A stretch of DNA of 63,722 bases, counting the filler, from Candidatus Delongbacteria bacterium (GTDB lineage Bacteria > UBA4055): the NCBI GenBank assembly GCA_016937995.1. It is 6 parts of 6 records of this genome, joined end to end, with 100 filler letters (N's around TTAATTAATTAA, not from the genome) between each part and the next. Parts side by side here need not be neighbours in the genome. Positions count along the whole stretch, not along the records: positions 1 to 12,047 come from JAFGVM010000096.1; 5 more parts are not named here. The stretch is one strand, 5' to 3'. Each line of letters starts with the position of its first letter. Positions within the stretch are counted from its first letter, which is position 1. Below the pieces are notes generated by a model that worked only from the letters and a program-made list of their open reading frames with translations, did not search any database and was not told the origin of the DNA. Positions 1 through 58,051 of the stretch are shown in pieces. The translations under genes were made by a program, and so were the position numbers.

Positions 1-35
1 ATACCTCATACATCATACATCATACCTCATACCCA
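1..35. repeat. Heptamer tandem array (C[C/A]TCATA)n ending in CCCA; same type as 15914-15952
   Basis: ata-cctcata-catcata-catcata-cctcata-ccca read directly. Confidence 0.9.
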
Positions 36-40
36 AAAAA

Positions 41-91
41 AAGTCTTACACTTCTCCGATAAATCGGAGCAGGCAAACTCAGTGTGACTTT
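41..91. repeat. REP-like palindrome with a nested CTCCGAT-AA-ATCGGAG palindrome
   Basis: Aligns with 15956-15990 except for the inserted palindrome at 54-69. Confidence 0.75.
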
Positions 92-2710
92 TTATAACAT
101 ATCCTTAATTTCTTTCAATTTATTCAACGCCTCTATCGGTGTTAAATTATTTATATCGATCTCATTTAATTTTTCTCTGAGAACATCATTGTCAGAACTG
201 AATAAACTTGGCTGTTCAAGAACAATAATTTTTTCCTTATCCTTTGCCAGTTTAGGTTTTGCGTCAGGAGTTAACTCATTCTCTTCAAGATTTTTTAAAA
301 TGATATTAGCTCTGTCTATTATTTCTTGAGGTAATCCTGCAAGCTGAGCTACGTAAATACCGTAACTGTGATCAGCTCCGCCTTCAATTATTTTTCTCAT
401 GAAGATGATCTCATCCTTATACTCTTTAACACTGACTGAGTAATTTTTTACTCTGGAACAAATCCTGTCAATCTCTGTAAGCTCGTGATAATGAGTTGCG
501 AATAAAGTTCTGGATGATAATTTCGCGTTATTATGAATATACTCTATGATCGACCAGGCCAGACTGAGACCGTCAAAAGTGGCTGTACCTCTTCCTACTT
601 CATCGAAAATTATTAAACTTCTCTGAGTAGCATTGTTCAAAATATTTGCTGTTTCATTCATCTCTACAAGAAATGTACTTTCTCCACCTGCCAGATTATC
701 TGAAGCACCCACACGTGTGAATATTTTATCCACCATACCTATCTCTGCGAGGTCAGCAGGAACAAAACATCCAGCCTGTGCGAGAAGAACTATCAGAGCT
801 GTCTGCCTTAAATACGTTGACTTACCCGACATATTCGGACCGGTTATTATGTGAATATTCTCTTCTTCGGTCAAATTGAGATCGTTAGGGATATATTCTT
901 TCCCTGTTTCGATCATTCTTTCAACTACCGGATGCCTGCCATTCTTGATGTTGATGCTTACTGTATCAACAAAAACCGGTCTAGTAAAACCGTACTTTTG
1001 CGAAACAACAGCATACGAATGCAGAACATCTAGGTTGGCGATTATATGTGAATTATTCTTTATCTGAGAAATGTAGTCAAGAAGTTTGAACTTGATATCA
1101 TCGAACAGCTCCTTTTCCAGACTGGATATTTTATCATCTGCATTAAGTATGCTCTCCTCATACTCTTTCAGCTTTTCATTGATAAATCTGTCGGAGTTTA
1201 CAAGTGTCTGTTTTTTAACAAAATTATCAGGTATCTGATCAGCATATTTCTTCGTTACCTCGAAGTAATATCCGAAAACTTTGTTGAACCCGACCTTTAC
1301 GTTCGGAATACCAATTTCCTCTTTGACTTCCTGCTGTAATAACAGCAGCTTCTCTTTTCCGTGATTGATAATGTCATACAGATCATCCAGCCGGGCTGAA
1401 TATCCTTTTTTGATGAATCCACCATCGTTCATAGTAAGAGAACAATCCTCGCTGATAGAACTCTCAATGATCTCTATAATGCCTGAATTATTCTCAAATT
1501 TTGAGATAGCATCATCCACATACACTGAATTCAACTGCCTCAGCAGCTCAGCAACATCAGGTATCTTTTCAAGAGAGTCTTTCAGCTTTAAAAGTTCTAC
1601 AGGTGTTATCTTGTAAGTACTTATCTTACCTGAAAGTCTTTCAATATCCACGATTTCATTTAGAATTTTACCGAGCTCTCTGTTTATTGAATTATCATTA
1701 AGAAGTGAGTTTGTAATTTCAAGACGGCTGTTGATCTTTTCACCCTCTTTTAAAGGGTTGATCAACCATTTCTTCAATAATCTTGATCCCATTGGTGTTT
1801 TTGTAAAGTTCATTACAGCATAAAGAGTAGCACTTTTATCGCCATCTGAATTTACAGGTTCAAGGATCTCAAGGTTTTTTCTTGTCCTGTAATCTATACT
1901 GCAGTATTTATCGTTATCATATTTCTTCAAAACATTCAGATGTGAGAAACCTGATCTTATATTTTCCTTCAGATATGATAGAACAACTCCCGCTGATATC
2001 ATTGCAGGATCATTGTCTTCAAAACCCAAAGATCTCAAACTTTTCAATTTATAAAATTCTTTAAGTTTATCCACGCTTAGTTCAGGAATGAAATTCATCC
2101 CTTCAAGTCGTGTTATCATATATTTTTTTTCGTTGATATTTTTTAAAATTGAATCATCATCATGTGATATCAAAATCTCTGAAGGATCAAATATTTCAAT
2201 AATCTCGACAAGTTCATGTAACGATGAAATATTTGATGCTGAAAATTCTCCTGTCGATATATCAGAAACAGCAAAACCATATCTTTTAGATTTTTCATCT
2301 TCCCAGGCACACATAAGGTAATTATTGGCGGAACTGTCGATCATATTCTCAGACAGTGCAGTTCCTGCAGTGATTATTTCAACAATATCTCTTTTGACTA
2401 TTCCCTGGGCAAATTTAGGATCTTCGGTCTGGTCACATACTGCGACCCTGTATCCGGCTTTGATTATCCTGGGTAAATAATTATCAAGCTGATGATGAGG
2501 GAATCCCGCTAACGGTATTGATGTTCCCATATGCTTTCCCCTGGTCGTTAAAGTAAGATCAAGAACCTTACTTGCGACCTTTGCATCATCGAAGAACATT
2601 TCGTAGAAGTCGCCCAGTCTAAAAAAAAGTATATGGTTCGGATTCTGATTCTTAATATCCATATACTGTTTCATCATCGGGGTTAAATTATCTGTCTTTT
2701 CTTTGCTCAT
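92..2710 (-). CDS. mutS: DNA mismatch repair protein MutS
   Basis: TPMMKQY start, FRLGDFYEMF mismatch-binding motif, GPNMSGKST Walker A, STFLVEM, DEVGRGT, FATHYHEL; 872 aa. Confidence 0.98.
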   Translation of the reverse strand: MSKEKTDNLTPMMKQYMDIKNQNPNHILFFRLGDFYEMFFDDAKVASKVLDLTLTTRGKHMGTSIPLAGFPHHQLDNYLPRIIKAGYRVAVCDQTEDPKFAQGIVKRDIVEIITAGTALSENMIDSSANNYLMCAWEDEKSKRYGFAVSDISTGEFSASNISSLHELVEIIEIFDPSEILISHDDDSILKNINEKKYMITRLEGMNFIPELSVDKLKEFYKLKSLRSLGFEDNDPAMISAGVVLSYLKENIRSGFSHLNVLKKYDNDKYCSIDYRTRKNLEILEPVNSDGDKSATLYAVMNFTKTPMGSRLLKKWLINPLKEGEKINSRLEITNSLLNDNSINRELGKILNEIVDIERLSGKISTYKITPVELLKLKDSLEKIPDVAELLRQLNSVYVDDAISKFENNSGIIEIIESSISEDCSLTMNDGGFIKKGYSARLDDLYDIINHGKEKLLLLQQEVKEEIGIPNVKVGFNKVFGYYFEVTKKYADQIPDNFVKKQTLVNSDRFINEKLKEYEESILNADDKISSLEKELFDDIKFKLLDYISQIKNNSHIIANLDVLHSYAVVSQKYGFTRPVFVDTVSINIKNGRHPVVERMIETGKEYIPNDLNLTEEENIHIITGPNMSGKSTYLRQTALIVLLAQAGCFVPADLAEIGMVDKIFTRVGASDNLAGGESTFLVEMNETANILNNATQRSLIIFDEVGRGTATFDGLSLAWSIIEYIHNNAKLSSRTLFATHYHELTEIDRICSRVKNYSVSVKEYKDEIIFMRKIIEGGADHSYGIYVAQLAGLPQEIIDRANIILKNLEENELTPDAKPKLAKDKEKIIVLEQPSLFSSDNDVLREKLNEIDINNLTPIEALNKLKEIKDML

Positions 2711-2720
2711 TTATTCTTTT

Positions 2721-2804
2721 CCCACAGGTTGAAACCTGTGGTTATTAGGGTTATATCCAGTTGGAATAATTTTAAACTTCTGAATTCTAATTTCTAACTT
2801 CTAA
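2721..2804. repeat. REP-like element CCACAGGTT-GA-AACCTGTGG with heptamer tail (copy 1 of 3)
   Basis: Reverse-complement match to 5219-5294 and 59548-59632. Confidence 0.85.
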
Positions 2805-2806
2805 TT

Positions 2807-3781
2807 TTATAATCCTGCGTTTAGTATATCATGTAGCTTGATCAATCCAATAGGTTTACCGTCTTTCATAACCGGCATGACCGTAAAACTTCCACTTTTT
2901 TCTATTATCCTTACGGCATCATAAGCCAGCATATCATGATTGATAGACTTTGGATCTGAAGTCATGATCTTACCGGCAGTCAGATCTTCTATACTTGTAT
3001 GTTTAAGCAATATTCTTTTAATATCACCGTTGGTTATGATTCCTTTCAATTTCTTTTTCTCAATGATAAGGCATGCTCCAAGATTCTTATCGTTCATTCT
3101 GATAATAACTTCTCTGAAATCATCTTTCTCAGAACATACTGCTACCTCTTCAAGAGGATGTATAAAATCATCTACTTTTAGTAATAATCTTTTTCCCAGA
3201 GTTCCACCAGGATGGAACAGAGCAAAATTTTCTTCTTTGAATTCCTTTACATCTGACAGAACTGTTGAAAGAGCATCACCCATGACCAATGCAGCAGTTG
3301 TACTTGAGGTAGGGGCCAGATTTAAACTGCAGGCTTCTTTGTCAACTTCCGTATTAAGAACAACATGTGAATTTTTTGCAAGAGTTGAGTTAACATTACC
3401 TGTAATAGCTATTATCTTACACCCTATTTTTTTCAGAACAGGAAGCATTGCTACCAGCTCATCTGATTCACCGCTTTTTCCAAGCATTATCATTGTATCT
3501 TCATTCTGCACCATTCCAAGATCACCATGCAATCCTTCTGCAGGATGCATATGGATCGCCATTGTACCTGTAGAACTTAATGTTGCCGCTATTTTTTTTG
3601 CAATGATACCTGATTTTCCCATACCTGTAACAACTACTTTGCCTGTAGTTGACATTATCAGGCTGACTGCTTCCACAAAGTTGTCATCAAGATTATTTTT
3701 CACCTTTATTAAAGCTTCTATCTCTGTGTCAAAAACCTTTTTTGCCAAATTACTTAAATAAGAATCATCCGGTTGTCTCAT
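2807..3781 (-). CDS. kdsD: KpsF/GutQ-family arabinose-5-phosphate isomerase (SIS + CBS domains)
   Basis: VTGMGKSG, HPAEGLHGDLG, LAPTSSTTA, FALFHPGGTLG, C-terminal CBS pair. Confidence 0.93.
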   Translation of the reverse strand: MRQPDDSYLSNLAKKVFDTEIEALIKVKNNLDDNFVEAVSLIMSTTGKVVVTGMGKSGIIAKKIAATLSSTGTMAIHMHPAEGLHGDLGMVQNEDTMIMLGKSGESDELVAMLPVLKKIGCKIIAITGNVNSTLAKNSHVVLNTEVDKEACSLNLAPTSSTTAALVMGDALSTVLSDVKEFKEENFALFHPGGTLGKRLLLKVDDFIHPLEEVAVCSEKDDFREVIIRMNDKNLGACLIIEKKKLKGIITNGDIKRILLKHTSIEDLTAGKIMTSDPKSINHDMLAYDAVRIIEKSGSFTVMPVMKDGKPIGLIKLHDILNAGL

Positions 3782-3993
3782 AGCGAATACCTTTTTATTG
3801 GGGTTGTAGCCTTATTGTGGGATATTTATTTGGGAGGGAAGTAACTTAGGATTCTCTCCAGCATATTACTTGATAATAATAAGGATTATTGTCATTTAAG
3901 TCAAGACATAATAGGAAAAAAGTATCCAAAATTTATTTTGCATAACTGATAAATGATATGGTATTCCACCTTTATTTTTTTTATATTAAAAAT

Positions 3994-4440
3994 ATGAAAA
4001 AAAACGTTAGAAATATTTCAAGAATATACAAGCCTGAGATTAACTCTGAAGTAGTACTGCCCCTTTACACTGAAAAACTTTCTGCAGGATTCCCTTCCCC
4101 AGCCAATGATTACATTGACAGAGGACTTGATCTGAACGAACTGCTTATAAAAAATCCATCTGCAACTTTCTATGTTGAGATAGAAGGTGAGTCCATGATA
4201 AATGCAGGCATAAATTCAGGAGACATTCTTGTTGTTGACAGATCACTGGAAGCAAAGCATGGAACTATAATAGTAGCAATACTTGATGGAGAATTCACAG
4301 TAAAGAGACTTTACTGGAAGGGAAAAACCGTAAAGCTTTTGGCGGAAAACCCGAACTATAAACCTATTATTATCACTGATGAGATGGATTTTGAAATATG
4401 GGGTGTTGCGACAACAGTGATACATAGAATAAAAACGTAG
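3994..4440 (+). CDS. umuD: UmuD-like S24 autopeptidase (start 3994 preferred over 3958)
   Basis: SAGFPSPA cleavage motif, GESM catalytic Ser, TVKRL catalytic Lys; no HTH; upstream of umuC. Confidence 0.92.
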   Translation: MKKNVRNISRIYKPEINSEVVLPLYTEKLSAGFPSPANDYIDRGLDLNELLIKNPSATFYVEIEGESMINAGINSGDILVVDRSLEAKHGTIIVAILDGEFTVKRLYWKGKTVKLLAENPNYKPIIITDEMDFEIWGVATTVIHRIKT

Positions 4441-4441
4441 T

Positions 4442-4507
4442 TGCAATTACCCAAATGGCACCGTCTGGGGAGTAGCAACTGCGGTGATACATAAACTGAA
4501 TAAATAA
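4442..4507 (+). pseudogene. Remnant second umuD 3' end
   Basis: 4463-4507 translates VWGVATAVIHKLNK*, versus the real UmuD end IWGVATTVIHRIKT*. Confidence 0.7.
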
Positions 4508-4516
4508 AGGAAAATT

Positions 4517-5173
4517 ATGTGTGGAAGATTTGCTCAAATATATGATGACTCTGCTTTGAAGCAGGAGTTTCAGTTAGAAGATATCAGGGAAAATATTACA
4601 AATAGATTTAATATTTCACCTGGGATGGAAGTTAATACTATCATCGGGGTATCAGATAAAAATTCGTTTGTAAAACAACATTGGGGTATTAACAGTATTC
4701 ACGGCCGTGAACTGGATAATCTTGTATTCAATACAAGATCGGATACATTTATAAAAGACAGGTTCGGCAAACATTTTCATAAGACCCGTTGTATCATACC
4801 TGTCAGTGGATTTTTCGAATGGAATAATAAACAACCTTATTTTGTAAAGAGTTTAAAAAATGACATTCTTTCTTTAGCAGGTGTTTTTATTCTGGATAGA
4901 AGGACCAATGAGTATTCCTGCTCAGTTATGACCGTAAATTCTATCGGGCAACTCTCAAATATCCATGAAAGAATGCCGTTGATACTTTCCGGCTATGATA
5001 AAATCAAGTGGCTGAATAATTCAAGATCAGATGTATCCGATCTTGAAAATATTTGTTTAAAAAGGATCGATACTACTGAGTTGGATATATTCAGAGTTAC
5101 CGACAGGGTTAATTCTTTACTGCATGATTCTCCCCAGTGTATTGAAAAATTAAATGAAAATTCTTTGCTCTAA
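4517..5173 (+). CDS. SOS response-associated peptidase (SRAP/HMCES/YedK family)
   Basis: N-terminal MCGRF, RCIIPVSGFFEW, IHERMP. Confidence 0.95.
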   Translation: MCGRFAQIYDDSALKQEFQLEDIRENITNRFNISPGMEVNTIIGVSDKNSFVKQHWGINSIHGRELDNLVFNTRSDTFIKDRFGKHFHKTRCIIPVSGFFEWNNKQPYFVKSLKNDILSLAGVFILDRRTNEYSCSVMTVNSIGQLSNIHERMPLILSGYDKIKWLNNSRSDVSDLENICLKRIDTTELDIFRVTDRVNSLLHDSPQCIEKLNENSLL

Positions 5174-5218
5174 TATCACTTAAAGGTCACTATTTGACCT
5201 TATGAGTTATTTATATTA

Positions 5219-5294
5219 AAAGTCAGAAATTAGAACTTAAAAAATTATCCCAACGGGATATAACCCCAATAACCACAGGTTTCAACCTGCGGGG
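5219..5294. repeat. REP-like element with heptamer leader (copy 2 of 3)
   Basis: aattatcccaacgggata...taaccacaggtttcaacctgcgg matches 59584-59632. Confidence 0.85.
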
Positions 5295-5331
5295 AAAAAT
5301 GCACTGAGCCTACCGAAGTGTGAGAGATAAA

Positions 5332-6603
5332 ATGAAAAAAGAACATGATAAAATATTTGCATTGATCGACTGCAACAGTTTTTATGCATCCTGTGAAAGG
5401 ATTTTCAGACCTGACCTGAGAGATAAACCTGTGGCCATTCTTTCCAACAATGACGGCTGTGTTGTCGCTTTAACAAAGGAAGCAAAAGAACTAGGTGTTA
5501 CCAGAGGTGAGCCATATTTTAAGATAGATCCTGAAATAAGAAAAAATCTTTCCGTTTTTTCATCGAACTATTCAATGTACGGTGATATCAGCCACAGAGT
5601 AATGAACATACTTTCAGAGTTCTCTCCTGAGACAGAAATCTACTCTATTGATGAAAGCTTCCTTGATCTTACAGGCATGAATATTGATCTTGCCGAGTAT
5701 GGAAATACAATAAGAAAAAAGGTAAAATGGTCAACCGGAATACCGGTATCAGTAGGCATCGGTAAAACAAAGACACTGGCAAAACTGGCTAATCATATCG
5801 CTAAAAAACTTGATAGATTCAACGGTGTTCTTGATCTGTCATCTGAAAAAGACATTGATAAGTATCTGGCAATGGTAAAAGTCAGCAGTATCTGGGGTGT
5901 CGGCAGAAAACTTTCCATGAAACTTGAAAGGCAGAATATCATCACTGCCAAAGATCTTAAATACACCTCAGACGGATGGATACAGAGAAATCTCGGAGGA
6001 GTGACCGGTATGAGAACGGTCTGGGAACTCAGAGGTATTTCCTGCATTCCTCTTGACTCTGTTCCAGCTACGAACAAAGGGATCGTAAGCTCCCGTTCTT
6101 TCGGTAAACCTATTGAAACTCTCATTGGCTTGAAAGAGGCCGTATCTTCGTATATTTCCATTGGTGCTCAGAAACTAAGAAAACAGAAAACTGCGGCATC
6201 TGCGGTAACAGTATTTATCAACACGAACCGTTTTAAAGATGAACCTCAGTATAACAATGGAATAACATATAAAACCCCCTACCCTACCTCTTCGACAATA
6301 GAGTTGACAGAATATGCTCTTAACCTGCTGGAAAGAATATATAAGGATGGCTATAAATATAAGAAAGCAGGTATCATGCTTGACGGTATTGTTCCCAATA
6401 ATGCTATTCAATACAGCCTTTTCACTCCTGAAAAATTCAGTGCTGATATTGATATTACTATGGATGCTGTAAATAAAAAATGGGGACGGAATACTCTTTT
6501 TACAGCCAGCTCAGGCATCAACCAAAAATGGTCAATGAGAAGAGAATTCGTATCTCCGAGATATACCACCAGCTGGGATGATATCTTGAAAATTAGAATT
6601 TAG
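5332..6603 (+). CDS. umuC: Y-family DNA polymerase V subunit UmuC
   Basis: ALIDCNSFYASCE, LSNNDGC, SSNY, YSIDESF, C-terminal WSMRREFVSPRYTT. Confidence 0.96.
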   Translation: MKKEHDKIFALIDCNSFYASCERIFRPDLRDKPVAILSNNDGCVVALTKEAKELGVTRGEPYFKIDPEIRKNLSVFSSNYSMYGDISHRVMNILSEFSPETEIYSIDESFLDLTGMNIDLAEYGNTIRKKVKWSTGIPVSVGIGKTKTLAKLANHIAKKLDRFNGVLDLSSEKDIDKYLAMVKVSSIWGVGRKLSMKLERQNIITAKDLKYTSDGWIQRNLGGVTGMRTVWELRGISCIPLDSVPATNKGIVSSRSFGKPIETLIGLKEAVSSYISIGAQKLRKQKTAASAVTVFINTNRFKDEPQYNNGITYKTPYPTSSTIELTEYALNLLERIYKDGYKYKKAGIMLDGIVPNNAIQYSLFTPEKFSADIDITMDAVNKKWGRNTLFTASSGINQKWSMRREFVSPRYTTSWDDILKIRI

Positions 6604-6660
6604 ATTTTATAAGTTGACAGTTGACAGCTACGATATTTTATCCAAAAGTTTAAAAAAATA

Positions 6661-6843
6661 ATCTTTTGACTTACTTTCCCAGACTGTCAAGGATCTATAC
6701 AATTTATTCTCCCCGTGAAACCGACGATCCACATCACGGGGAAACCTGCGACACTGCTATAAACCAGCAGTCACTTAGGGGCAAGAACTTGGATCGTCTT
6801 GATTTTGGTCCCGATCAATCGGGATCATCAAGGAAAGTAACGT
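6661..6843. ncRNA. Candidate structured RNA / repeat with hairpin and pseudoknot, copy 1
   Basis: Stem 6710-6718/6734-6742; loop 6723-6731 complementary to 6790-6798; ends TTACTTTCC...GGAAAGTAA are inverted. Confidence 0.6.
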
Positions 6844-6897
6844 AAAAAAAATTATAATAAAACGTATTAAGATTCTGAATCAAGTTCAGAATGACGG

Positions 6898-7869
6898 TTA
6901 GCTCTCCAACTTTAATTCAAATCTACAGCGATCATCTCCTTTAAGTGGGGATTCCAATAGTTTGATCTCAAGATCCATACCGAGCATATTATCAAATGCG
7001 TTCTTTGTAAATCCGGCACTGCAATAACACCAGTTCTCATTTACTTCATTGTTTCCTTTTAACAGAGAATCTCTGACGAACTGACAGTGACAGGCATAAT
7101 ATTTTCTTTCTTCTGGAGTTCTGGCATTCAGATAATTTTCTATATCATAAGGGATCTTAGTAACATACAATTTATTTCCATCTCTTACAGCTGAAAGTAT
7201 TTCCTGGTCAGCTTTCACATAATCAACTACTTCCTGAGTGATCCTCTGCTCGAACCAGACTATATCGTTATCACAGTGATACTGCAATTCAGCCACCTTA
7301 CGATCATGAAGTTCTTTGAGAAAAGTATCTAGATCCGATGCTTTTTTATAATTTTCATGCTCTTTTGCAAAAGCTTCCTTCGGAATATTATGGTTATTTC
7401 CTATAAGAACTTTTTGGTATTTATCCTCAGGAAGTACTTTGGTAAGCCTGTTCATAAGATCTTTGGTGAATTCAGGATATGCGGATAGAGGTGATCCAAG
7501 CGGAATATCTGGAAGATCTCCGAATATTTTTTCAGAAGTATTCTCACCAACTACCTTTATAGCTCTCTTTTTAATGTTTTCAATTACACCAACACCACCG
7601 AGAATGGTAGTAAAATAAATATAGATATCATTCTTTTTCAGAAGATAGAAATATCTCGCTATTGCAAGAATATTATCAATAGAATTATCACCCTGCTCTA
7701 TAAGCATTTTCACATATTTTTTGATATCACTGACCTCTGCTGAAACTGTATCTTTATTTATTTCCTGTAGGTATTTTTCCAGTTTTTCAATATCTCTGAG
7801 GGCCTGTTCGATCTGCTGCTCATCATAATTCCTCTGCTGATAAAGTTCCTTTAATTTTTCCTTACTCAT
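6898..7869 (-). CDS. Hypothetical protein with Cys-rich C-terminus (DUF6144/V4R-like)
   Basis: 323-aa ORF with GGAG RBS; CHC, CYCSAG and GDDRCRF motifs. Confidence 0.7.
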   Translation of the reverse strand: MSKEKLKELYQQRNYDEQQIEQALRDIEKLEKYLQEINKDTVSAEVSDIKKYVKMLIEQGDNSIDNILAIARYFYLLKKNDIYIYFTTILGGVGVIENIKKRAIKVVGENTSEKIFGDLPDIPLGSPLSAYPEFTKDLMNRLTKVLPEDKYQKVLIGNNHNIPKEAFAKEHENYKKASDLDTFLKELHDRKVAELQYHCDNDIVWFEQRITQEVVDYVKADQEILSAVRDGNKLYVTKIPYDIENYLNARTPEERKYYACHCQFVRDSLLKGNNEVNENWCYCSAGFTKNAFDNMLGMDLEIKLLESPLKGDDRCRFELKLES

Positions 7870-8012
7870 AATTTCTCCTGCAAAATATTTCTATATGAGA
7901 TAATATACTAATCTTTTGATTGAATATAATATAAATCCGATGAACTGTAATAAAAAGGGATTAAAACAATTAATCTCTCACGGAGGCACAGAGGTGGTGG
8001 GTTGTGGGTTGC

Positions 8013-8197
8013 ATCTTTTGAATCACTTTCCCAGACAGATAAGGAACTTACAAATTATATTCCCCGTGAAAAACCGACGATCCATCATCACGGGGAAACC
8101 TACGACACTGCTATAAAGTACTGATAACTAAGGGGTAAAAACATGGATCGTCTTGATTTTGGTCCCGATCAATCGGGATCATCAAGGAAAGTAACGT
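8013..8197. ncRNA. Candidate structured RNA / repeat with hairpin and pseudoknot, copy 2
   Basis: Stem 8060-8069/8088-8097; loop 8076-8085 complementary to 8143-8152; close match to copy 1. Confidence 0.6.
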
Positions 8198-8213
8198 AAA
8201 AAAACATAAAAAA

Positions 8214-8241
8214 AGGGGACTAATGGAAATCGTCCCCTACA
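8214..8241 (-). repeat. GTAG-type REP hairpin
   Basis: aggggac...gtcccctaca; similar copies at 10051, 50712 and 53475. Confidence 0.8.
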
Positions 8242-8265
8242 TTATCAATTATTAATTATTCATTG

Positions 8266-9420
8266 TTAATTATAATCATAAACATTCACATAAACCTCTC
8301 CATCCTCATCCATTGCAACATATAATTTATCTCCAACAAAATAGAAAATATCTTTCATAATTAAAATTTCATTGTACACAATATTACCTTTGAATTTATA
8401 ACTATTTAAATAAACACCATCTTTGAAAATGCTGAATTCTGTATAACCACCTGCGACACTTTCGTCAGTCTTGGCTTTCTTAACCCACACACGACCGAAT
8501 TTATCGCAATAGATATCTTCAATAGCTTTATTATATGCTCTTTTAAGATCGTTTTCTTTCTTCCCATCACTATTGATCACAGCCCCTTTGAATATTTCTA
8601 TTCTGTCTTTAGAGACTTCTGATTTTTTATAACTCATTTTAACAGTCTGTTCAAGTTTTCCCGAAAGACCATATACTTTATATTTGAAAAGATTCTCATC
8701 AACTTCTGCAGTGAAAATATTATTATCTGAAAAAGTCACCGGAGTAAATATATCTGTCGGATTAACCTGTGGATTATTTGTATCTATTTCCATACTTCTT
8801 TTATCCAAAGAAAAGATCTCATTATACTTTGAATCATACATCTGTACTTCTACAGTAAAATATACAATACCATCGATCATCTTTGGTGCCATTTTAAGAC
8901 CTAGATTTCTTTCTTTGTTTATCTGTTCTAAGAACATAGGTTTCGCATCCTGTTGAAAGTGCTTAAATCCTAAAAATTCACCATCAGTATCAAACTTAAC
9001 ACGTTTAATTGCAGCCTGATCAAAAACAACGATCGTATCATTGAAAATACTCATATCTCCAAGCATTCCATATTCTCCGGGACCATTGCCTAATCTTCCA
9101 AAAGTTTTAATATATTTACCCGCCCTATCAAACTTTTTAATAGTAGAAGAGTGACTGTCAGCTATATAAATGCTCCCTTTCGAATCTACAACAATATCTG
9201 ACACTTTTGAAAATACTCTTTCTTCCGGATCATCATCGCTTTCAGTGCCTGATATTTTTATTTTGAGTTTTAAACCGGGATCAAAATCCGGTATTGAAGG
9301 TGTGCCATTATTGGTGAAATTCTTTACTCCATCAACTGTTTCCACTTTGTACGTGCTGTTATTTGAGCACGATGTCAAAGCAATTAGTAATGCCATTAAA
9401 ACGAATAAATATTTTTTCAT
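8266..9420 (-). CDS. Lipoprotein, 6-bladed beta-propeller (NHL-like)
   Basis: Lipobox LTSC; DSKGSIYIAD and FGRLGNGPGEY motifs; paralog of 49077-50180. Confidence 0.85.
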   Translation of the reverse strand: MKKYLFVLMALLIALTSCSNNSTYKVETVDGVKNFTNNGTPSIPDFDPGLKLKIKISGTESDDDPEERVFSKVSDIVVDSKGSIYIADSHSSTIKKFDRAGKYIKTFGRLGNGPGEYGMLGDMSIFNDTIVVFDQAAIKRVKFDTDGEFLGFKHFQQDAKPMFLEQINKERNLGLKMAPKMIDGIVYFTVEVQMYDSKYNEIFSLDKRSMEIDTNNPQVNPTDIFTPVTFSDNNIFTAEVDENLFKYKVYGLSGKLEQTVKMSYKKSEVSKDRIEIFKGAVINSDGKKENDLKRAYNKAIEDIYCDKFGRVWVKKAKTDESVAGGYTEFSIFKDGVYLNSYKFKGNIVYNEILIMKDIFYFVGDKLYVAMDEDGEVYVNVYDYN

Positions 9421-9537
9421 ATTTTTCTCCTGTAATTTTAATTCTTTGACTGAGGAGAAGGGAAAAGGTTGTCTTTGTGTAATTTTAGATTTTAGATTTT
9501 AGAAGTCAGATTTAAGAGAATGCGAAGAATTGTGCGA

Positions 9538-9707
9538 AACTTTCCAGATTGATAAGGATCTTTCCAAATTATCCTCTCCATCCATCATCGGCAGTTCAAC
9601 AGGATGGAGAAACCTGCGATACTGCTATAAAGTACTGATCACTAAGAGGTTAAAACTTGAACTGCCTAGCACTTTTTGTTACTTTTTGCTGCAATGGGAA
9701 AAAGTAA
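9538..9707. ncRNA. Candidate structured RNA / repeat with hairpin and pseudoknot, copy 3 (diverged, covarying)
   Basis: Stem 9575-9583/9602-9610; loop 9590-9599 complementary to 9657-9666; shares core AAACCTGCGAyACTGCTATAAA. Confidence 0.6.
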
Positions 9708-9784
9708 AGATCATGTACTCTTTCTAAATAAAACGAATTATAATACTCTTGGATTCCCGGATCAAGTCCGAGAATGACAGAATA

Positions 9785-10030
9785 TTATTTTTTCTTAAAC
9801 GGGATCAGATCCAATCCCAAATACCTTAAACACATAAACAAAAAATAAGTAACCCCAGCCTCATCAATATTACCGAAAAAAGGTATATTATCCGGCAATA
9901 TCTCAAAAATCCCAGCTGTAGGGTTAATAATATAAACCAAACTAAAAAGAATCCCGATTATAGCTAAAAACACACCAAATAATGATCTCGGTTTCTTAGA
10001 ACTTTTAACAATTATTCGTTTCTTATCCAT
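9785..10030 (-). CDS. Small membrane protein, DUF1232/YkvA family
   Basis: YIINP...LPDNIPFFGNIDE motif. Confidence 0.8.
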   Translation of the reverse strand: MDKKRIIVKSSKKPRSLFGVFLAIIGILFSLVYIINPTAGIFEILPDNIPFFGNIDEAGVTYFLFMCLRYLGLDLIPFKKK

Positions 10031-10050
10031 AATAGTTCCTTTTTTTTAAA

Positions 10051-10080
10051 AGAGGGGACGATAAGAAATCGTCCCCTACA
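10051..10080 (-). repeat. GTAG-type REP hairpin
   Basis: aggggacgat-aagaa-atcgtcccctaca. Confidence 0.8.
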
Positions 10081-10101
10081 ATTGGTAATTGTTAACTCTT
10101 T

Positions 10102-10812
10102 TTAAACAAAAATTCCAGCGTCTTTTTCTTTCTTCAATCTGTCAAAAAGATCTTTAACTACCTTTTCAGCATTAGCTTTAGCTTTCTCAAGCAGCAGCTC
10201 ATGCTTGCCTGCCTCGATAACTTTGCTTCTGAGCTCTCCCCTGATCTGATCCTCCATAGCTTTACCTGAATAAGCATCAAATCTTGCCCATCCGATCTCT
10301 TTTTTGACCATGATCTTATTTGGATCACTCTGAACTTCCACAATGTCCTCATCCAGTATTACATCAGGAAGATCAAGAACAAGTTCCTGTTTCTCTATAT
10401 CCCATCTGATACTATTTGAACTGAGAGAATCTGCAGGTATATAATACTGAACTTTATTACCTGGAACTTTCATTTCGACAGTTGTAGTACCTAAATGATA
10501 CCAGTCCCATAGTATTTTTGAGGATGATCTTTCGATTTCTACAGTCAATTCTGCTGTCATGACCACTATCTTTGATTCCTGCTTTAATTGACCTATTGTA
10601 TTCAAAATGATCTCTGTATTATAAACATTTGGTCTGAATACATTATTGAAAGTATCGTGAAAACCCATACTGAATTTGTACAGAATATATCCTGTGGTCA
10701 ATATAGCTACGACACAAACTACTGCAAATGCCCAGTATTTTGAAGTATTTTTCTCAGGTCTTTCATCTATAACTTCAATTATATCTTCTATATTTTTGAT
10801 TTCTTCAGTCAT
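10102..10812 (-). CDS. Membrane-anchored DUF4230-like protein
   Basis: One N-terminal TM helix; LVLDLP and LLEKAKANAE patterns. Confidence 0.7.
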   Translation of the reverse strand: MTEEIKNIEDIIEVIDERPEKNTSKYWAFAVVCVVAILTTGYILYKFSMGFHDTFNNVFRPNVYNTEIILNTIGQLKQESKIVVMTAELTVEIERSSSKILWDWYHLGTTTVEMKVPGNKVQYYIPADSLSSNSIRWDIEKQELVLDLPDVILDEDIVEVQSDPNKIMVKKEIGWARFDAYSGKAMEDQIRGELRSKVIEAGKHELLLEKAKANAEKVVKDLFDRLKKEKDAGIFV

Positions 10813-11077
10813 TTTATACTCCTGTATTATTTATTTAATATGTTCAAAATTACACATTATTGCAATTTATAATTTTTATGTTTTTACTATTAATATGTTA
10901 AATATAAATATCAAAGGTTAAAACTGAGAGTGATCTAAGCCTATATCTCCAGAATACATTCGGTTATTTAAAAACTGCACTTATTGCATTTTCTTAAAAT
11001 TTCTCTATGTTATAAATTCTTTCTTTATTAATATTCATTTTTACCATTACTATACTAATATCATACTGGAGAAGATC

Positions 11078-11857
11078 ATGAAACCAAAATCAAGTTTTAT
11101 ATCAATTCCTCTTATCGCTGTATTTTTGCTATCAGTTCAAATTCAAACTACTTATTCTCAAGAAGTTATGAAAATTAAGAAGAAAGATAACACTATTATC
11201 AGTATACCAATGTCTGAGATCGCAGGAATATCTTTTAGCGGTTCTGACCAATTACCTGACAATGAGTTCGCTGATATTGATGGAAATATCTATAAGATCG
11301 TAAAAATAGGTTTACAATCATGGGCAGGGTCAAATTTAAATGTTAGCCGTTTTCGTAATGGAGACCCGATCCTTGAAGCAAAATCAGATGAGGAGTGGAT
11401 AAAAGCCGGAAAAAAAGGAAAACCTGCCTGGTGTTATTATTTGAACAGTTCAGAAAATGGTCCTCTGTATGGAAAGCTTTATAATTGGTATGCTGTTAAT
11501 GATAAAAGAGGTCTCGCTCCTAAAGGATGGCGTGTTGCTTTTGACCAGGATTGGGATGCTCTTTCCAAGGGACTGGGTGATATACCCGGTGCAAAATTAA
11601 AAGAAGCTGGAAAAAACAACTGGCTCAAAAATGCTGATAATGTTACTAATGAGACCGGGTTCACTGTTCTTCCAAGCGGATCAAGATTTGCTGCCGGTAA
11701 ATTTTCCGGTGCGGGATCACAGGCAACTTTGTGGACAAGCACTGAAAATACTCTTAATGAAGGGTGATCAAGAATTATTTATGACTACAATAGTACTGTC
11801 TCCAAATACAGCTATGATAAAAATTGCGGACTGGCTGTCCGTTGCGTTAAAGAATGA
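11078..11857 (+). pseudogene. Secreted Fib_succ_major (FISUMP) domain protein interrupted by in-frame TGA at 11765-11767 (pseudogene or recoded CDS)
   Basis: DIDGNIYKIVKIG, YGKLYNWYAV, APKGWRV; frame continues past TGA to the family C-terminal motif GLAVRCVKE. Confidence 0.8.
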
Positions 11858-11960
11858 TCATAGTGATTTGATTTGTACTAAATTCAACCGTCAGTTTAGT
11901 TTTTTTTACAATAATACAACTATTGGATTATTGTTTATAAAGACTGCGATTGGTATATTT

Positions 11961-12047
11961 AAGTCAGAAGTCAGAAGTCAGAAGTCAGAAGTCAGAAGTC
12001 AGAAGTCAGAAGTCAGAAGTCAGAAGTCAGAAGTCAGAAGTCAGAAG
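11961..12047. repeat. Perfect (AAGTCAG)n heptamer microsatellite, at least 12 units, runs into contig end
   Basis: Read directly. Confidence 0.97.
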
Positions 12048-15874: not shown

Positions 15875-15913
15875 ATTTTATCCTATACTTTATCTTTTAA
15901 TCTTTTGACTTTA

Positions 15914-15990
15914 CCTCATACCTCATAACTCATAACTCATACTTCATACCCAGAGAAGTCCTAGACTTCGATAAACTCAGTCTGACTTTT
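15914..15990. repeat. Right heptamer array of five CCTCATA-like units ending CCCA, followed by a REP-like palindrome
   Basis: cctcata cctcata actcata actcata cttcata ccca, then aagtcctagacttcgataaactcagtctgactt. Confidence 0.9.
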
Positions 15991-37274: not shown

Positions 37275-37348
37275 TACACCATAGAGGATTCGAACCTCTG
37301 ACCTACGGATTAGAAATCCGGTGCTCTATCCAGCTGAGCTAATGGTGC
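37275..37348 (-). tRNA. tRNA-Arg(TCT), CCA not encoded
   Basis: Cloverleaf GCACCATTAGCTCAGCTGGATAGAGCACCGGATT-TCT-AATCCGTAGGTCAGAGGTTCGAATCCTCTATGGTGTA. Confidence 0.96.
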
Positions 37349-56635: not shown

Positions 56636-58051
56636 CTACGGCATTGTGCACATGTCTTTGAAATTAAGCAATGCATATGGATCAATTTTAAACCCATCCC
56701 ACTCAGGTACATATATCTCCTCATTCTCCATTGATTCTAATACAGCTTCAAGTTCCATTTTCTTAACAACACCTAGTATTTTTTTGATCGTATCAAAATA
56801 ATGCCTTGATTCACACCTAGAGAAAATATCAAATGGTCTGTCTGGAAAGGTCATATGTACAAGTGACTCCGGGAACCATCCCTGCTGATGTCCGAATCTT
56901 AGAGATTGTACACAGTTCACTATGTATAGTATAAAATCGGTCTGAAGTACTTCATTAAAAGTGACATAATCCGATCTTGAGTGTTTCATCAAAATATCTG
57001 CATGAAGGGATTTCCTCCCCAGTTTCAACCTTTCGTTTCTGTAGACAAAACTGCTTAAATGATTATGGAATATCTCAAATCCCTGAAGTTGTTCAAACCC
57101 GAGATTATCTTTTTCGATATAATATCTGTCCTGGATCAGATCTTCAATGAGATCATATCTGTCATGTTTCATTAATGCTGCGATACAATATAAGAACAAT
57201 TCATGGATAAAAAATTTAAATATATCCAGACCGCATGGATGTTTATATTCGTAACCTTCCGGGAAAACCAGATATTTAGTTAAAGACTGAAAGAAATCAT
57301 GCATTCTTTTGCCAATGAAATCATCGAACATATACTGCCCTATCATATATACAAGCTCAACAAATTCATTCTTATATATAAAATACTCATCACCCGAGCT
57401 GAATATCTTTTCATCATATTCTTCATCATTTTCATCAAGATCTATCCTGAATTTTTCAAGGTTCTTTGAAAATACATTAAAATATTCTGTTACTAGTCCA
57501 ATAGCATTCGGACGTCCCTCTTTGATTGCCTTTTTTGCTGAGATATAAAGATCCGTCGTTTCAAGAGAGAATTTCTCATCTTCACTGAAACTTAAAGCCT
57601 CTCCGAAATTGGGTTTCACATAAATAGGTCTGTCATGGATCCAACGTAAAAGCTTTTCCATGTTTTTGCTGAAAGTACCCTCGTCTGACAGATCTATGTA
57701 CGATCTAAGTTTATAAAATTCAGGGATATATGGGTTGCCGTATTCATCCTTCTCAGAGAAAACAACTATGAATTTATTATTGTCAATTTTATTATAAAGC
57801 TCTTCAGAGATAATTTGAGCACCTTTGTCAGTTAAATATCTTTTACTGCAGATTATTAAAACTTTGTCTGTTTCAACATCCGTAACAGAATCTTCAATAA
57901 ATACTTTGGCATCATCACTTTCTTTCAGATCGTATTTATCAAATATAACATCCACATTTGAATCAACCAGTTTTTCAGCCAGTGCCTCTACCCAGTTATC
58001 ATGCTTGGGTGTTTCCCAGTTGTATGAAATGAATACTTTCGGTCTTATCAT
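56636..58051 (-). CDS. TIR/SEFIR-domain protein
   Basis: KVFISYNW, VDVIFDKYDL, DKVLIIC, YIDLSD. Confidence 0.85.
   Translation of the reverse strand: MIRPKVFISYNWETPKHDNWVEALAEKLVDSNVDVIFDKYDLKESDDAKVFIEDSVTDVETDKVLIICSKRYLTDKGAQIISEELYNKIDNNKFIVVFSEKDEYGNPYIPEFYKLRSYIDLSDEGTFSKNMEKLLRWIHDRPIYVKPNFGEALSFSEDEKFSLETTDLYISAKKAIKEGRPNAIGLVTEYFNVFSKNLEKFRIDLDENDEEYDEKIFSSGDEYFIYKNEFVELVYMIGQYMFDDFIGKRMHDFFQSLTKYLVFPEGYEYKHPCGLDIFKFFIHELFLYCIAALMKHDRYDLIEDLIQDRYYIEKDNLGFEQLQGFEIFHNHLSSFVYRNERLKLGRKSLHADILMKHSRSDYVTFNEVLQTDFILYIVNCVQSLRFGHQQGWFPESLVHMTFPDRPFDIFSRCESRHYFDTIKKILGVVKKMELEAVLESMENEEIYVPEWDGFKIDPYALLNFKDMCTMP

Follow-up and report, generated by a model that had tools for sequence, protein, structure and literature searches.

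A pseudoknotted intergenic element of Candidatus Delongbacteria with a widely shared 3′ module: possible small structured RNA genes

The stretch of DNA analysed here (the window; 63,722 nt, six records of the Candidatus Delongbacteria assembly GCA_016937995.1 joined with filler) carries, within its first record (JAFGVM010000096.1, positions 1–12,047), a non-coding intergenic element of ~180 nt in three + strand copies, at 6668–6850, 8020–8204 and 9536–9714. Upstream of copy 1 lie mutS, an S24 peptidase gene (umuD-like), an SRAP gene and a umuC-like gene, and one protein gene on the − strand separates each copy from the next. The three-copy element was proposed in an initial annotation made from the sequence, and it was confirmed at these places: the covariance model R1, run with filters off over the whole window, found these copies only, at 178–223 bits (203, 223 and 178 bits for copies 1, 2 and 3), the next match scoring 15 bits (E 0.36). 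Similarity is ~88% between copies 1 and 2 (129 nt) and 74% between copies 3 and 2 (98 nt).

All three copies contain a 9–10 bp hairpin (P2), the loop of which pairs with a segment 55–60 nt downstream to give a pseudoknot (PK). In copy 1, P2 (6710–6718/6734–6742) is TCCCCGTGA/TCACGGGGA and PK (6723–6731/6790–6798) is GACGATCCA/TGGATCGTC; copy 2 has the same helices with one additional pair in each (P2 8060–8069/8088–8097; PK 8076–8085/8143–8152, GACGATCCA(T)/(A)TGGATCGTC, the 3′ strand opening with ATG), and copy 3 has TCTCCATCC/GGATGGAGA (9575–9583/9602–9610) and GGCAGTTCAA/TTGAACTGCC (9590–9599/9657–9666). These helices had been called fully covarying; every changed position is indeed compensated, but the description was overstated, since 4/9 P2 positions and 4/9 shared PK positions differ between copies 1/2 and copy 3 and the rest are identical. 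The conservation claimed for the intervening core and for the 5′ motif CCAGA..AAGGA (6679–6695 in copy 1) holds in 3/3 copies; the core AAACCTRCGAYACTGCTATAAA (6742–6763, 8096–8117 and 9610–9631) is present three times in the window, where 100 shuffles gave an expectation of 0. Further downstream lie a Shine–Dalgarno (SD)-like sequence (TAGGGGC, 6776–6782, in copy 1; 8129–8136 in copy 2; 9643–9650 in copy 3) and a 3′ module, which in copy 1 consists of a strand X (CTTGAT, 6798–6803), a GC hairpin (6809–6824) and a strand X′ (ATCAAG, 6827–6832), in copy 2 of X (8152–8157), the GC hairpin (8163–8178) and X′ (8181–8186), and in copy 3 is of the common type described below, with hairpin strands Y (9679–9687) and Y′ (9699–9707). 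The ends had also been suggested to close the molecule, and they do so through a helix P1 in copies 1 (6671–6679/6832–6840, 9 bp) and 2 (8025–8031/8186–8192, 7 bp); in copy 3, however, the 3′ strand AAAAAGTAA pairs locally with TTACTTTTT, 12 nt upstream, so closure is not a feature of the family.

Relatives were located through MutS, the window protein being 86–88% identical to those of two Candidatus Delongbacteria metagenome-assembled genomes (MAGs), G001 (locus L001) and G002 (locus L002). Exact scans for the core pattern gave 0 matches in genome contigs and 0 in metagenome contigs, and the 5′ domain is therefore reachable only via the relatives found with MutS. R1 has matches in G001 and G002 only, that is, in 2/15 genomes of the phylum. 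BLAST searches starting from one weak match led to a second subfamily, with no fewer than 11 additional copies, which brings the copies read in this lineage (three genomes) to ~23, 11 of subfamily 1 and 12 of subfamily 2. Pairing was counted in a MAFFT alignment of nine related subfamily-1 rows, copy 1 and L089 being excluded because MAFFT placed them out of register. Across P2 and PK, 98.8% of 171 cells are paired and 10 of the 19 pairs are changed on both sides; the observed values were reached by 0/500 shuffles on four of five measures, and slid controls paired at 30–52%. The selection on single-stranded structure that had been postulated from three copies is borne out by these figures, the helices being kept by compensatory change beyond controls, as expected of a structured RNA in general. 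There are two non-pairs, a C.A at the top of P2 (L082) and an A.C in PK (L087a). Both excluded rows also pair, copy 1 with the helices of copy 2 and L089 with a PK of GACGATGCA/TGCATCGTC and a shorter P2, and P2 was recovered independently by RNAalifold. Two copies (L087a and L089) hold additional hairpins within the P2 loop while retaining the flanking helices, and the single-stranded blocks between the helices are conserved; both properties speak for an RNA. In one orthologous pair, L084 (G001) and L085 (G002), the element is retained between flanks that are syntenic at 87% identity, and the changes in X/X′ and Y/Y′ are compensated.

Subfamily 2 has a long-range helix of its own, GTCTGCCATT/AATGGCAGAC, which in L098 has a wholly different sequence (GGCAATCATA/TATGATTGCC) and still pairs. 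The 5′ strand of this helix overlaps a local hairpin, TCTGCC/GGCAGA. Copies of the two subfamilies stand head-to-head at three places (L081/L100, L082/L220 and L087/L096), with 5′ ends 30–60 nt apart.

The last ~37 nt at the 3′ side form a separate module in most copies, with the order X(CTTGAT)-TTTTG-Y(NNACTTTTN)-X′(ATCAAG)-Y′(NAAAAGTNN), that is, a 9-bp hairpin whose 6-nt loop can pair with the 5′ flank of the same hairpin; in copies 1 and 2 and in L089, the GC hairpin takes the place of Y. The exact pattern occurs in 85 stretches of metagenome contigs and on two Bacteroidota plasmids (Marivirga p1 and Aureibacter pAT6), with 0 matches in viral contigs and none in five genomes of other phyla reached via MutS loci, a sample too small to be meaningful. 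Among 26 distinct Y/Y′ types, 11 of the variants being perfectly paired, the 78 free positions comprise 62 Watson–Crick pairs, 7 G.T on the given strand, 1 A.C and 8 others. The complementarity between loop and flank tracks the loop sequence (ATCAAG 67/68, GTCAAG 3/3, TTCAAG 1/1), with 6/75 in the opposite-strand control. Because Y/Y′ covaries and the flank follows the loop, the module is an independent, strand-specific structured unit. What lies upstream of it in other bacteria is several unrelated conserved non-coding families of ~200–450 nt; R1 had 0 matches in 80 module-bearing metagenome loci, the upstream parts hold no consistent complement to the tail, and the 371 open reading frames (ORFs) flanking these 80 loci share no common protein, the biggest cluster covering 9 loci at differing positions. 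The 5′ domain is thus narrowly distributed and the module widely, and the element is modular. The two module helices may form together, in a tight knot that perhaps includes a U.A-U triplex, or may alternate. In telomerase RNA, SAM-II and ENE/MALAT1-type triplexes, an A-U-rich stem 2 lies under a U-rich loop 1 in an H-type pseudoknot, and the module order X-U5-Y(..U5)-X′-Y′(A5..) could likewise place its U-run in the major groove of a U5/A5 helix; it differs from those knots in having no linker between X′ and Y′ and no sequence relation to them. We rejected the module as an intrinsic terminator, the U-run lying 5′ and the A-run 3′ of the hairpin on both strands.

Several module-bearing loci are worth recording in their own right. 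On Marivirga sp. plasmid p1 (L223), three tandem units with spacings of 121 and 170 nt lie at 2337–2712, each with a module-like hairpin at its end, in a gene-free stretch close to the record end. On Aureibacter tunicatorum pAT6 (L224), a ~240-nt non-coding insert (2314–2556) separates cas7d from cas5d in a type I-D cas operon and is co-directional with them; it contains a hairpin, CTGTTTGAGC..GCGAGTT, plus the module and ends ~15 nt before the cas5d start. One metagenome family, 'a' (L109, L111, L147 and others), has a conserved ~200-nt unit that opens with GACCTCGACTGATGAGCC, resembling the hammerhead core CUGAUGAG, and no hammerhead model matched it.

The initial annotation could not place the element in a known family, and comparison with Rfam 15 (4227 models) agrees with that. 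At gathering scores, the whole window returned only a tRNA (37275–37348). At E up to 10, the interval 6500–9900 gave sub-threshold matches only, the best of them to CRISPR-DR52 (24.3 bits, with a cut-off of 50) and to Ocean-V (23.4 bits, with a cut-off of 75). Twenty module-bearing metagenome loci yielded tRNAs only at gathering scores, one such locus gave five chance-level sub-threshold matches at E up to 10, and 11 small loci gave none at E up to 0.5. The motif strings found no match in the literature texts searched, a result that speaks only for those texts.

The + strand is probably the functional one, as judged from the sequence asymmetry of the module (seven G.U against one), and on our reading three subfamily-2 copies have a U.G in the long-range helix on that strand. 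In 11/11 subfamily-1 copies, an SD-like AAGAGG, AAGGGG or AGGAG precedes a UUG or AUG by 5–8 nt, and the PK 3′ strand opens with this start triplet. We read this as probably a ribosome-binding-site-like element masked by the knot and not as a gene. The orientation to neighbouring genes is also regular: the gene on the 3′ side is convergent in 17/20 copies that have such a neighbour and co-directional in three, with three more copies at contig ends, and on the 5′ side 13 copies have a divergent neighbour and nine a co-directional one. Such convergence would be expected if read-through into a co-directional gene is avoided. The neighbours are themselves unrelated (beta-propeller, LigT, scramblase, TrxB-like, ORF6N, HisRS and Eco57I-type methylase genes), and in the two related MAGs single copies stand beside histidyl-tRNA-synthetase-like (hisS) and thioredoxin-reductase-like (trxB) genes, among others. 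The cassette look of the window, where copies had been described as alternating with single cargo genes, is therefore local and not a system, and that description does not stand; the syntenic umuC–NHL interval of L001 lacks the element and has a single gene, of 851 aa.

What the analysis shows is the covarying helices, the modular build, the two distributions and the orientation rule. Our preferred, though tentative, interpretation is that each copy is a gene for a small structured RNA, the three being paralogues that share a 3′ cap. The RNA would be ~170–230 nt long, read from the + strand from its own promoter and tail-to-tail with the neighbouring protein gene. It would fold into a conserved single-stranded 5′ motif, CCAGA..AAGGAUC, the hairpin P2 and an H-type pseudoknot between the P2 loop and the downstream segment, and this pseudoknot would frame a mostly unpaired, sequence-conserved core (ACUGCUAUAAA ... 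AAGAGG). Since the PK 3′ strand opens with UUG/AUG just after the SD-like sequence, formation of the pseudoknot would hide this ribosome-binding-site-like element. The core may be a binding surface, with the element acting as a riboregulator or decoy. The 3′ module, X(CUUGAU)-UUUUG-Y-X′(AUCAAG)-Y′, could serve as a cap that stabilizes or defines the RNA end, probably protecting it, and would be common to many other lineage-specific non-coding elements of bacteria of the Fibrobacteres–Chlorobi–Bacteroidetes (FCB) group. The closest parallels are the Rfam motifs of the Weinberg/Breaker type and multicopy families of small RNA (sRNA) paralogues, which are likewise intergenic and ~180 nt long, with covarying helices, conserved unpaired blocks and a pseudoknot, and which likewise occur in a narrow lineage with several paralogues per genome. 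The present element differs from such motifs in matching no Rfam model and in sharing its 3′ end with unrelated upstream domains in other phyla.

A number of observations weigh against RNA genes. The strand signal in subfamily-1 P2 and PK is mixed, with two U.G against two non-pairs (C.A and A.C, which would be G.U on the − strand), and the local hairpin of subfamily 2, TCUGCC/GGCAGA, has a C.A in 4/11 copies. With no linker between X′ and Y′, full simultaneous module helices would be impossible in a classical H-type knot. Contigs of one RNA run cover only 9152–9418, inside the NHL gene, and the other RNA run gave only a 33-nt repeat match, although contigs cannot show absence. A sigma-70-like scan found no positionally conserved promoter (18 sites vs 13.6 +/- 4.4 in shuffled sequence, none common to the copies), and the terminator scan at the copies found no canonical + strand terminator after the element. 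The − strand sigma-70-like sites at 6879–6851 and 9765–9737 were rejected as promoters, as they are not in register between copies.

The main competitor, which we consider unlikely but by some way the most serious, is a non-autonomous selfish DNA repeat of the REPIN/MITE/BIME kind that settles behind genes, its helices being selected as single-stranded DNA (ssDNA) that allows it to be mobilized in trans, a Y1 (HUH) transposase being one candidate. Several features that favour it also weigh against RNA genes: there are ~23 copies in three genomes at places that differ between relatives; the syntenic interval of L001 has other content, and the hisS interval, compared as a possible filled and empty site, differs between G001 and G002 by whole blocks, with no clean insertion; many copies lie near contig ends; and hairpin families resembling REP sequences adjoin the copies. 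Genes of the Y1_Tnp family are present in both G001 and G002, and one of them carries 47-nt inverted REP-like arms, the same repeat being found beside a subfamily-2 copy. The head-to-head pairs of the two subfamilies also fit a mobile repeat, and the X sequence CTTGAT may correspond to the nick-site core of pC194/phiX174-type HUH proteins. REP/REPIN-RAYT systems and BIMEs, too, are multicopy extragenic structured repeats behind genes, with compensated changes in their helices, mosaic surroundings of other hairpin repeats and a Y1 transposase in the genomes. The element is unlike them in having a pseudoknot and a conserved unpaired core in place of a simple palindrome, in a fixed orientation to the neighbour (17/20), and in that no copy flanks a Y1 gene: R1 found nothing significant in the six Y1_Tnp loci (best E 0.48), and head-to-head pairs occur at only three places, on which grounds we rejected REPIN/RAYT membership. 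Moreover, the copies are 70–90% alike and none are near-identical, so there is no sign of recent spread; terminal inverted repeats and target duplications were not seen; the orthologous copy in L084/L085 has been retained with compensated changes; and ssDNA recombination sites are not known to have pseudoknots, loop expansion segments or conserved unpaired cores.

Other mobile systems were considered alongside. G001 and G002 contain no TnpB and no IS110 recombinase (PF07282 0/2 and PF01548 0/2 genomes, both MAGs being incomplete), and none lie among the neighbours, on which grounds the omega-RNA of IS200/IS605 and the bridge RNA of IS110 were rejected. A single reverse transcriptase gene was found in the two genomes, in G001. 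The contig joints 6897>9744, 8243>9750 and 6731>8226 have sides of 22–30 nt and join repeated hairpin families, and they are therefore not excision products. The Y1 gene on contig C9 of G001 is flanked by a repeat different from the element: it lies between the 47-nt inverted arms (L210, 1315–1361 / 1915–1961), and a ~200-nt derivative with the same ends as these arms lies at 827–1030 of L101, beside a subfamily-2 copy downstream of hisS. Together, the gene, its arms and the derivative look like a RAYT/REPIN or IS200-type system.

A further alternative, which appears improbable and clearly weaker than a selfish repeat, casts the element as a 5′ leader akin to a riboswitch, which would control whether transcription of the + strand reads on into the convergent neighbour as antisense, the long-range helix and UUGAUUUUUG forming a conditional terminator. 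The convergent 3′ gene in 17/20 copies, mostly 17–124 nt away, would suit such a role, as would the U-rich run directly after the PK 3′ strand in both subfamilies and the lack of a + strand terminator between module and neighbour; in subfamily 2, the overlap of the long helix 5′ strand with the local hairpin yields two exclusive folds. However, P2 and PK of subfamily 1 are compatible and not exclusive, the loop of the supposed terminator would be ~58 nt, the 3′ neighbour is co-directional at three copies, nothing is shared among the neighbouring genes, and neither a ligand pocket nor a promoter was identified.

Two readings seem very unlikely. In the first, the element is a short-ORF mRNA, type I toxin-like or encoding a leader peptide, with an SD-like sequence and a start codon that P2 and PK lock. 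The spacing of 5–8 nt between the SD-like sequence and UUG/AUG is suitable, the frame stays open for 14–18 codons through the module in 10/11 subfamily-1 copies (longer in L084), and AGGAG-type sites precede neighbouring ORFs in this organism. Type I toxin mRNAs such as hok and aapA1 are similarly highly folded, multicopy and ~200 nt long, with an SD-like sequence and a start codon in long-range pairings and a 5′–3′ closure like that of copies 1 and 2. Against this, the peptides (MDRLDFGPDQSGSSRKVT, MNCLDFCNFLSRKS and MNCLEFWLLCFKTK) are short, not hydrophobic and not conserved beyond the constraint on the RNA, with which they diverge; stops in the other frames come from the conserved TTGA itself; subfamily 2 reads ATG GCA GAC TAG, a stop after three codons; and no antisense partner was identified. 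We accordingly rejected a type I toxin mRNA. The second, for which we see equally slim prospects, would be a new class of self-cleaving ribozyme in which the pseudoknot scaffold holds the conserved core. It is drawn purely by analogy from the pseudoknot with invariant unpaired nucleotides and from the multicopy, scattered occurrence; no Rfam ribozyme family matched, even at E up to 10, and nothing pointed to a cleavage-site logic.

Gene cassettes set apart by integron-like attC sites or by solitary CRISPR repeats, suggested by the alternation of window copies with single ORFs and by the weak likeness of the copy-1/2 module form to CRISPR-DR52 (− strand, 24.3 bits vs gathering 50, E 0.21), are already contradicted, as there are no attC boxes (RYYYAAC/GTTRRRY; the module arms vary as NNAC/GTNN, namely GCAC, GTAC, TTAC, CTAC and CAAC) and no integrase among the neighbours scanned, the hairpin TCCCGAT..ATCGGGA occurs in G001 and G002 as scattered singles without an array and forms no such tandem array in the window, the CRISPR repeat of the module-bearing plasmid pAT6 is unrelated to the module, and relatives' copies are single and beside housekeeping genes.

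If the element is an RNA, as we tentatively favour, it adds a pseudoknotted family from a candidate phylum without cultured members, together with a short 3′ module of conserved sequence that recurs downstream of many unrelated non-coding elements of Bacteroidota-related bacteria. This would point to a shared biology of 3′ ends, whether in stability, in processing or through a common binding protein, within a group not known to have the classical Hfq/ProQ sRNA machinery. A bolder extension, which we regard as improbable, if a little less so than the leader described above, is that FCB bacteria possess an undescribed modular class of small RNAs in which lineage-specific sensor or scaffold domains are joined to a universal ~37-nt pseudoknotted and possibly triplex-forming cap (CUUGAU-U5-hairpin(AUCAAG loop)-A-tail). 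In that case, the Delongbacteria family would be a ribozyme or a switch responding to a ligand or to the ribosome, and it would also control antisense transcription running into the convergent gene. If the element is selfish DNA, it represents a repeat class of unusually complex single-strand structure. Under either reading, it marks variable intergenic hotspots that break MAG assemblies.

The genes that separate the window copies are neighbours and not parts of the element. The ORF between copies 1 and 2 (6898–7869, − strand, 323 aa) scores above the cut-off for no Pfam family and has no counterpart in the syntenic L001 interval, and the NHL/6-bladed beta-propeller gene between copies 2 and 3 (8266–9420, − strand) has a 3′ end that is conserved in L001. 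Between the module and the neighbouring gene lie − strand terminators from two recurring hairpin families. The first, REP-like, is represented by the hairpin ATTCTGAA..TTCAGAAT with a U-rich tail at 6872–6892 (− strand), probably the intrinsic terminator of the convergent ORF 6898–7869, and by another at 9747–9773 (− strand), behind ORF 9785–10030 and adjoining the 3′ end of copy 3. Members of this family, which are also found in L095, L096, L098, L216 and L221, have a conserved ..(R)ATGAC(R) flank and covarying stems, are often tandem and directly behind the stop codons of unrelated genes, and are terminator-like on the strand of the gene. The second family, AAAAAAGGGGAC..GTCCCCTACA (8209–8241 and 10048–10080; L001, L085 and L097), is likewise common to unrelated genes. 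It includes the GGGGAC..GTCCCC hairpin with a T-run at 8215–8237 (− strand), the terminator of the NHL gene, which is kept in the same place in L001 and which copy 2 directly adjoins. Summed contig depth is very high at 9464–9577 and 8210–8323 (82.7 in X2; 25 and 77 in X2 and X3, the two DNA runs), which shows that these flanks (TTTAGATTTTAG repeats and the terminator region) are multicopy or common to several populations.

Elsewhere in the window, the SRAP gene (4517–5173) lies between the umuD-like S24 peptidase and umuC-like genes, in a stretch (4450–5347) that has no counterpart in the otherwise syntenic L001. A perfect heptanucleotide tandem, AAGTCAG x12.4, occupies 11961–12047, and heptamer repeats of the ATACCTC type occur at 1–33 and 15912–15950. 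A TIR/SEFIR-domain protein of 471 aa is encoded at 56636–58051.

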